From Bacteroidales bacterium (GTDB taxonomy: Bacteria; Bacteroidota; Bacteroidia; Bacteroidales; UBA4417): a DNA stretch of 64,000 bases. Position numbers and translations under genes: made by a program. Within the stretch, counting starts at the first letter, position 1; every line of letters starts with the position of its first letter. Shown in pieces: positions 59,399 to 59,872 of this stretch. The notes below the pieces were generated by a model that worked only from the letters and a program-made list of their open reading frames with translations, was not told the DNA's origin and did not search any database. The stretch covers positions 103 through 64,102 of the forward strand of contig JBBSDC010000001.1 of assembly GCA_038249705.1 (NCBI GenBank), written 5' to 3'.

Positions 59399-59872
59399 TT
59401 AATTACTTATATCCAAATATTCAAGTATCAGGCTGCCTTTTTTTGTACCTTTTACTTTGCAATTTACCTTTTTTACGTTTGCTAAGCAGATTTTATTCTG
59501 GTCGTTAATCCGTACTTCGATGCTGTTTTCATTAATTCCTTTCACAAAAAGAATACTTTCATTACCATGATTTTGATAATTTAAGAGGGTGAAAGCATAA
59601 ATTTCACCTTCTTTATAAAATGGATGTTTAGGCTCGAGAAATATTCTGCCGGTACAATTTATCCGGTCAATTTTGCAATCTATATCATCACCGATATTAA
59701 ACTCATATTGCAGATAGTATTCTGCAGGCATAAAATGTTTCAGTCCATTAATATCTAGCATAACATAATAGTAAGCATCATCCTGAAGCTGAACCAGGTT
59801 ATGTATTTTAAACGGATACCATTCACCCTCTGTAAGGATAACCTTACCTGTATTATATCCCGGATATTGCAT
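59399..59872 (-). CDS. small hypothetical protein with an S1/OB-like signature
   Basis: 157 aa. ...NIGDDIDCKIDRINCTGRIFLEP... resembles the C-terminal strand pattern of S1 domains (G..v.v.v..iD..gRi.LS). The second half is beta-rich. The family assignment is tentative. Confidence 0.6.
   Translation of the reverse strand: MQYPGYNTGKVILTEGEWYPFKIHNLVQLQDDAYYYVMLDINGLKHFMPAEYYLQYEFNIGDDIDCKIDRINCTGRIFLEPKHPFYKEGEIYAFTLLNYQNHGNESILFVKGINENSIEVRINDQNKICLANVKKVNCKVKGTKKGSLILEYLDISN

Follow-up and report, generated by a model that had tools for sequence, protein, structure and literature searches.

A conserved Bacteroidales protein with a predicted S1-type barrel, encoded in some lineages beside relA/spoT and in some beside a large structured RNA

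A 64,000-nucleotide (nt) stretch of a Bacteroidales genome (lineage UBA4417, assembly GCA_038249705.1, contig JBBSDC010000001.1, positions 103 to 64,102), hereafter the window, was analyzed with a focus on the open reading frame (ORF) at positions 59399-59872 and on its two neighbours, relA/spoT and a large structured RNA. This ORF is a genuine, previously unannotated conserved gene encoding a protein of 157 amino acids (aa), referred to here as the OB protein. The gene that accompanies the OB gene most consistently is relA/spoT, not the RNA. Structural modelling predicts a small cytoplasmic protein with an N-terminal S1-type OB barrel and a C-terminal OB barrel. We give an even chance to the interpretation that the gene is a member of a relA-OB-RNA neighbourhood, in which the OB protein binds single-stranded RNA in a RelA/SpoT context, with the RNA of the neighbouring gene as a plausible, though facultative, ligand. 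The OB-protein family is unannotated, the RNA family undescribed and the relA linkage new; our literature searches returned no description of a Bacteroidales large RNA like this one or of the OB-protein family, and nothing relevant on a RelA partner of the S1-like type. OLE, GOLLD, ROOL and other large bacterial RNAs that are structured but have no known function have been hard to crack, and the best leads have been their protein partners and gene context.

The protein-coding part of the locus comprises the following features:

59958-62156, minus strand: relA/spoT, 732 aa, with HD, RelA_SpoT, TGS and ACT domains (Pfam matches)
59893-59900, minus strand: -7 promoter box TATCTTTG of the 157-aa gene, conserved in related loci
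59399-59872, minus strand: gene of the 157-aa two-barrel protein, with a predicted S1-like domain at about residues 8-82 and a predicted OB domain at about residues 85-157

The ORF, whose ATG start is at 59872 on the minus strand, was accepted as a real gene because of its 131 homologs, its 21 invariant alignment columns and a confident predicted fold. The homologs were obtained from a search of 5.8 billion proteins with E values down to 1e-63, and nearly all of them are 153-161 aa in length with 48-68% identity. Their source labels read 'hypothetical protein', and the few organism labels are Bacteroidales or Bacteroidota bacterium. The invariant columns were identified in an alignment of 52 homologs and are centred on C-K-I-D-R-I-N-C-T-G-R-I-F-L-E-P-x-H-P-x-Y. 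Pfam analysis returned no domain in the 157-aa protein or in its 131 homologs, and no NCBIfam match to the OB protein was found. A profile search of 1.84 billion representatives enlarged the family to 403 clusters at 50% identity, in which the commonest form, of about 300 aa, consists of two tandem copies of the 150-aa unit and thus of four barrels (e.g. L034 of G037, L055 of G158 and L092 of G186); the single 157-aa form of the window is a minority form, and no other fused domains were found in the top 150 clusters. According to the source names of its homologs, the family was found only in one order, Bacteroidales. The gene also has its own promoter box, as the first-pass annotation of the window had proposed, located at 59893-59900 and not, by one base, at 59892-59899. 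This box lies about 20 nt before the ATG and is kept in 11 of 12 related loci with the consensus TA[TAC]CTTTG; it reads TAnnTTTG in nine of them and TAACTTTA and TAACTTCA in two more, and it is missing in the one locus with a shorter gap.

An AlphaFold2 model was built from the family alignment (mean predicted local distance difference test 85, predicted template-modelling score 0.72) and comprises two barrels, one at residues 18-81 with the order beta1-beta2-beta3-alpha-beta4-beta5, and one at residues 91-153 made of five further strands. DSSP placed the elements of the first barrel at E18-28, E34-39, E45-49, H50-56, E63-71 and E77-81. The first domain of the model therefore has the S1 topology, a five-stranded antiparallel barrel with a helix between strands 3 and 4, and it is superposable on solved S1 domains. 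In an exhaustive structural comparison, residues 1-83 superposed on the S1 domain of NusA with Z 8.6 and a root-mean-square deviation of 2.5 A over 70 aligned residues; further S1 matches were M. tuberculosis RpsA (Z 8.2), aIF2-alpha, Rrp4/Rrp40, RNase R, PNPase and 1SRO (Z 6.4), and many additional S1 domains matched at Z 6.4-7.4. Residues 85-157 matched generic OB folds, including Tex S1 (Z 6.9), the OB domain of DNA ligase (Z 6.8), ModG and SSB. For the model as a whole, the top Foldseek match was the tandem D3-D4 of ribosomal protein S1 (E 4e-5), and multi-S1 proteins of the ESM Atlas aligned to the whole protein at template-modelling scores of 0.54-0.58. The segment IGDDIDCKIDRINCTGRIFLEP, in which the first-pass annotation had seen a likeness to the terminal strands of S1 domains, forms beta4 (residues 63-71) and beta5 (residues 77-81) of the model, i.e. 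the last two strands of the barrel that aligns to S1 domains, and Foldseek on an AlphaFold model, which it had named as a check, agreed with the Z of 8.6 to NusA S1 in returning an S1/OB fold of the nucleic-acid-binding type. The beta4-beta5 sequence K-I-D-x-x-x-x-G-R-I-x-L-E is, as we take it by eye, similar to the S1 signature. By eye only, the invariant residues H46, F47 and R76, together with D69 (mostly D or E), fall about where S1 domains would be expected to carry their RNA-contacting aromatics, His, Asp and Arg on beta2, beta3 and beta5.

On the basis of the model, the OB protein would be a member of the S1 fold by structure, not by sequence. Like the S1 proteins to which it was compared (the bS1 repeats, NusA, PNPase, RNase R and Rrp4/Rrp40), it is predicted to have the five-stranded barrel and the beta3-beta4 helix, nearly all of its best structural matches are S1 domains at Z 7-8.6, and its tandem barrels resemble D3-D4 of bS1. 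Unlike them, it has no sequence match to Pfam S1 or to solved S1 chains, its second barrel is generic OB, it carries the conserved cysteines C66, C73 and C138 and the N-C-T-G-R motif, and it is a stand-alone protein of 157 aa, or of about 300 aa when duplicated, with no other domains.

The distribution of the gene was analyzed in 45 genomes of the window's genus and in 150 families represented by one genome each; in the latter, the RNA was counted with a sequence profile (R2) of its whole promoter module at an E value of 1e-8 or better. The R2 module was found in 35 of the 150 other families, which gives 36 lineages together with the window's genus. A pattern search with the RNA's upstream palindrome only, allowing 2 mismatches in the 150 genomes, gave as many matches as the reversed control; these were discarded as noise and the search was replaced by R2.

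The upstream gene, previously read as relA/spoT, was confirmed by Pfam to encode a 732-aa RelA/SpoT protein. It stands beside the OB gene in 12 of the 37 OB-positive lineages, with relA followed by the OB gene in eight (often overlapping or less than 45 nt apart), the OB gene followed by relA in three, and one gene between them in one. The relA and OB reading frames overlap or are up to about 85 nt apart, and in the window's genus the OB gene has its separate -7 box. Since RelA identity to the window's protein is only 38-50% in the aligned loci, the relA-OB loci belong to deep lineages; the adjacency thus recurs in distant lineages and in more than one gene order. The RNA is absent from the vicinity in six of the 12 relA-OB lineages, and in four of these six the whole genome is without an RNA module. 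The RNA, for its part, adjoins relA in 8 of its 36 lineages, in either order. In five lineages (the genus, G027, G101, G177 and G093), the OB gene immediately precedes the RNA promoter and its stop codon lies 0-100 nt from the palindrome and promoter module; among them only G101 lacks relA there, having sucC upstream. Two lineages (G158 and G186) have the RNA, relA and then a double-length OB gene, with another gene between relA and the OB gene in G186. In two more, relA lies beside the RNA and no OB gene beside them, namely G146 (relA then RNA, 11 nt apart) and G098 (RNA then relA). Every pair of relA, OB gene and RNA therefore also occurs without the third member.

Among the loci related to that of the window, the upstream order is constant, with relA followed by the 157-aa gene, whereas the downstream gene varies and is trkA in only about half of them; the RNA therefore goes with the upstream genes. 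The neighbours had been described earlier as relA/spoT upstream and trkAH downstream, a suggestive stress-physiology setting but only context. In our analysis the relA context is the strongest signal obtained, and trkA and trkH are indeed present in the window but are conserved in only about half of the related loci. A complex prediction with RelA (732 aa) and the OB protein returned a score of 0.00 and 'no answer', which counts neither way.

The intergenic part of the locus contains the RNA and its signals:

59331-59352, no strand: near-perfect 22-bp palindrome GTTATTAACAATTGTTCATAAC, upstream promoter element of the RNA, centre at about -86, invariant in 13 congeners
59287-59291, minus strand: -33/-35-like element TTGAC of the RNA promoter, within the conserved column block CTTG[AC]
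59260-59267, minus strand: -7 box TAATTTTA of the RNA promoter (TAnnTTT[GA]), nn positions variable and frame fixed
58361-59255, minus strand: structured non-coding RNA of about 895 nt, recognized by conservation across congeners and by its own promoter and terminator
58358-58422, minus strand: 3' domain of the RNA, comprising a hairpin with a UACG cap (58411-58422), a terminator hairpin AAUGGGGAAC...GUUCCCCAUU (58367-58400) and a U-run after it, backed by covariation

Judged from these signals, the large RNA is a gene of its own, with a promoter from which transcription probably begins at about 59255 and a terminator at which it ends. Congeners are 71-84% identical from about 59381 to 58354 of the 1.2-kb gap, and the conservation stops abruptly at the terminator. 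In the congener alignment, CTTGAC at 59287-59292 is followed, after 19 nt, by TAATTTTA, and an A-run lies between the palindrome and CTTGAC. The two nn positions of the -7 box read AT, CT or CC among congeners, and TT and TA were also seen in the wider set. The first-pass annotation had reported that the spacer has no TAnnTTTG box; this is correct to the letter, but TAATTTTA at 59260-59267 is a conserved -7 box that reads TAnnTTTG proper in other families. The palindrome is the only match in the genome at up to 3 mismatches, and the promoter-module profile likewise has a single match there. When the 3' domain was modelled by covariance, 97% of cells paired and 14 of 23 pairs showed compensatory changes, against at most 55% pairing in slid controls. 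RNA-library (metatranscriptome) contigs from two studies cover 58408-59255 only and leave the ORF and the spacer uncovered. Three near-identical contigs of one study end at 59252 or 59255, 5-8 nt past the -7 box; such contigs cannot prove a 5' end, so these ends are a weak hint only, though they agree with the promoter. Contig depth cannot rank genes, and the missing cover over the ORF says nothing on its expression or on read-through.

Some further features of the promoter and of the RNA were recorded. The promoter region of about 97 bp (59256-59352; L039-L092) has a fixed architecture in 36 lineages, and a second conserved block, (A/T)TGT(T/G), occurs about 15 nt after the palindrome, ahead of the A-run. 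Rfam searches of the window's RNA and of 17 related loci identified no family, and the match to RAGATH-22 (E 0.33) concerns the terminator hairpin only. RNase P RNA and tmRNA were considered as identities for the large RNA; both are located elsewhere in the genome (C131 and C52), so it is neither of them. The Rfam 6S model RF00013 had no match in this genome, and as the same model fails on a Bacteroides thetaiotaomicron control, the missing 6S match is uninformative.

The 3'-domain model also matches other families of the order, in which the loci have the same palindrome, TTGAC and TAnnTTT[GA] at the same spacing and a homologous RNA 5' end, CAyCArryGAGcGATAAA. The genes upstream of the RNA in these loci are unrelated or divergent, including an amidohydrolase, metK, GTPases and a tRNA. 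The 3' domain follows the promoter module on the same strand in 37 of 39 loci, and the resulting RNAs are 290-640 nt long; those of the window's genus, at about 650-900 nt, are the longest forms of the RNA family. In 146 genomes from the rest of the phylum, searches for the OB protein and for the RNA module found neither; the RNA model used includes promoter features and could miss distant forms. As regards variation, the RNA family spans about 290 to about 895 nt (L032/L088 of G027, L045/L091 of G139 and L084 of G167 compared with the window), with both ends, i.e. the 5' end and the 3' UACG-hairpin-plus-terminator domain, being kept while the middle expands. Two copies of promoter module plus RNA occur at different loci in four of the sampled genomes, namely G077 (L060, L061), G121 (L062, L086), G160 (L065, L066) and G171 (L071, L072). 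In G180 (L054 491-911), about 1.9 kb separate the palindrome and RNA module from the RNase P RNA gene, which is located upstream on the opposite strand with an amidohydrolase gene between them, probably by coincidence.

Among the 45 genomes of the genus, the OB protein was found in 36, the RNA 3' domain in 37 and neither in 7. The RNA lies beside the OB gene in all 36 protein-positive genomes, a count that includes G001, whose contig ends inside the RNA, and G016 and G056, in which gene and RNA are on separate contigs ending in or beside them. Among the 150 families, the OB protein was found in 36 and the RNA module in 35; both were found in 15, the protein only in 21, the RNA only in 20 and neither in 94. 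The 15 families with both compare with 8.4 expected (odds ratio 3.4, Fisher p 0.004), values that overstate the signal because related lineages are not independent. In the 16 lineages with both, OB gene and RNA are directly adjacent in five, within 3.5 kb in two and unlinked in nine. The co-occurrence with which the first-pass annotation proposed to examine its RNA-protein pair thus held in part: the genes are adjacent throughout the protein-positive genomes of the genus and also in G027, G101, G177 and G093, but the RNA stands alone in 20 of its 35 families and the protein in 21 of its 36.

In the interpretation to which we gave an even chance, the OB protein would bind single-stranded RNA via its S1-like barrel and would act in the context of RelA/SpoT, i.e. 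of the stringent response and the ribosome; the abundant neighbouring RNA of this lineage would be the most plausible ligand, as an accessory rather than an obligate partner. S1 domains bind single-stranded RNA, and sharing that fold does not prove function. Several results weigh against this interpretation. RNA binding is predicted from the fold of the model, and the sequence searches gave no S1 signal: PF00575 had no match at E values up to 1 in the window protein or in any of the 52 family members, and a profile search of PDB sequences returned no S1 chain, only one chance match. The protein is mildly acidic, with an isoelectric point of 5.8 overall and 4.9 for domain 1. As to context, relA is non-adjacent in 25 of the 37 OB-positive lineages. 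As to the ligand, 20 of the 35 RNA-positive families have the RNA without the OB protein, the core motif of the OB protein is also kept in genomes without the RNA, and two congeners of the window, G017 and G018, have the RNA but no OB gene. In both congeners (L031 3012-3337 in G017 and L052 1810-2083 in G018), relA is followed by a gap of 270-325 nt and then by intact palindrome, promoter, RNA, terminator and trkA; a search of the interval from relA to the palindrome gave no remnant of the OB gene, and the spacers of the two genomes are mutually dissimilar. The protein tree (26 units) is poorly resolved and leaves the grouping of the RNA-adjacent forms in one clade neither established nor rejected (approximately unbiased test, p-AU 0.097).

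A closer tie between the two products, in which the OB protein binds a defined RNA element and is needed for folding, stability or function of the RNA, is unlikely, though it accounts for several of the observations. OB protein and RNA were both found only in the same order; the OB gene abuts the RNA promoter in five lineages, among them G101 with no relA nearby, and the RNA accompanies the gene in every protein-positive genome of the genus. The motif differs with position as well, since all 13 RNA-adjacent OB proteins examined read NCTGR, whereas non-adjacent ones read NC[SAVQNK]G[KRQ]. The precedent for such a pair is OapB, a small beta-barrel KOW protein that binds P12.2/P13 of OLE (PMC7936274). 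As oapB also occurs in species without ole (PMC7936274), the wider distribution of the OB protein does not exclude a dedicated pair. In both systems a bacterial RNA that is large, ornate, abundant and without known function stands alongside a small protein of beta-barrel fold, which here is a candidate partner, and in both the protein family is wider than the RNA. They differ in that binding was demonstrated for OapB while RNA binding by the OB protein is predicted, in the protein architecture (a small KOW barrel with helices in OapB, S1 plus OB here), in the phylum (Bacillota compared with Bacteroidota) and in that the strongest gene linkage of the OB protein is to relA/spoT. To our knowledge, relA/spoT linkage is no feature of the OLE system. 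Gene linkage wherever both partners occur, the pattern of OLE and its Oap proteins, was not found here, the two genes being unlinked in nine of 16 lineages. Also against a dedicated pair are the 20 families with the RNA alone and the 21 with the protein alone, the intact promoter, RNA and terminator that G017 and G018 keep without an OB gene, and the length of the RNA outside the genus (290-640 nt), which does not track the presence of the protein. The OB protein follows relA more faithfully than it follows the RNA; a dedicated RNA-protein pair is therefore possible rather than shown.

It is likewise doubtful that the adjacency is no more than inherited gene order around a general S1/OB nucleic-acid-binding or chaperone-type protein, with no partnership involved. 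Most family members adjoin neither relA nor the RNA (relA is non-adjacent in the 25 lineages mentioned above), the core motif is conserved whatever the neighbours, and the relatedness of the lineages means that the counts overstate their independence. Against this explanation, relA and the OB gene are adjacent in both orders, with overlapping or near-touching frames and with RelA proteins that are only 38-50% identical, whereas chance alone would place the OB gene beside one given gene in well under 1% of genomes; the RNA, too, adjoins relA in either order (G146 and G098).

More ambitious, and improbable in our estimation, is the view that all three components, RelA/SpoT, OB protein and RNA, work together as a single module in Bacteroidales, in which the protein would tether the abundant RNA to either the alarmone enzyme or the ribosome and the RNA would thereby modulate (p)ppGpp synthesis or hydrolysis. 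If true, such a tethering module would be an RNA-based layer of stringent control, and we know of no described counterpart of that kind.

The RNA had also been suggested to be made as a 3' extension of the 157-aa mRNA, and the version in which it is mainly such an extension, or is processed from that mRNA, is very unlikely. As with RNAs that are derived from 3' untranslated regions or co-transcribed, ORF and RNA are on the same strand with a short spacer and no terminator between them. The earlier statement that the spacer has no clear terminator was upheld: neither a terminator-like site nor a stable hairpin was found from the stop codon to the start of the RNA, the spacer shows no more folding than shuffled sequence does (z = -0.22), and the palindrome is at 59331-59352 as described. 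In five lineages, 0-100 nt separate the OB stop codon from the RNA promoter module, which makes read-through into the RNA physically likely and favours an extension. In contrast to such RNAs, this one has its own conserved promoter and mostly no such ORF upstream. The complete promoter module, conserved in position and sequence at fixed spacing in 36 lineages (35 of them outside the genus), mostly follows unrelated or divergent genes and not the OB gene, and for this reason we do not regard the RNA as a 3' extension; the contig ends at 59252-59255, just past the -7 box, are a weak hint in the same direction.

That the OB protein is a transcription factor acting on the 22-bp palindrome to control the RNA promoter is hardly credible: the palindrome is unique in the genome, invariant in the genus and directly after the OB gene, but the same palindrome precedes the RNA in 20 families in which no OB protein was found and in G017 and G018, so the protein cannot be its necessary ligand, and the predicted S1/OB fold is without a helix-turn-helix or other known reading head for sequence-specific binding of double-stranded DNA. 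Because the palindrome is unique in the genome, a dedicated binding factor other than the OB protein is expected.

With the OB protein, an undescribed family of 290-900-nt RNAs gains a concrete and testable candidate partner, a stand-alone protein of predicted S1/OB fold. The repeated linkage of both protein and RNA to relA/spoT points further work to the stringent response rather than to K+ transport. The promoter of the RNA is now defined, including the unique 22-bp palindrome, and the transcript model is corrected in that the large RNA is its own gene and not a 3' untranslated region.

One promoter element of the window lies outside the RNA finding:

58195-58202, minus strand: -7 box TAAATTTG of trkA, conserved where trkA lies downstream

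The TAAATTTG box is 28 nt ahead of the trkA start. As trkA has its own -7 box, trkAH is a separate unit, and the AT-rich 190 nt at 58168-58360 are outside the RNA.

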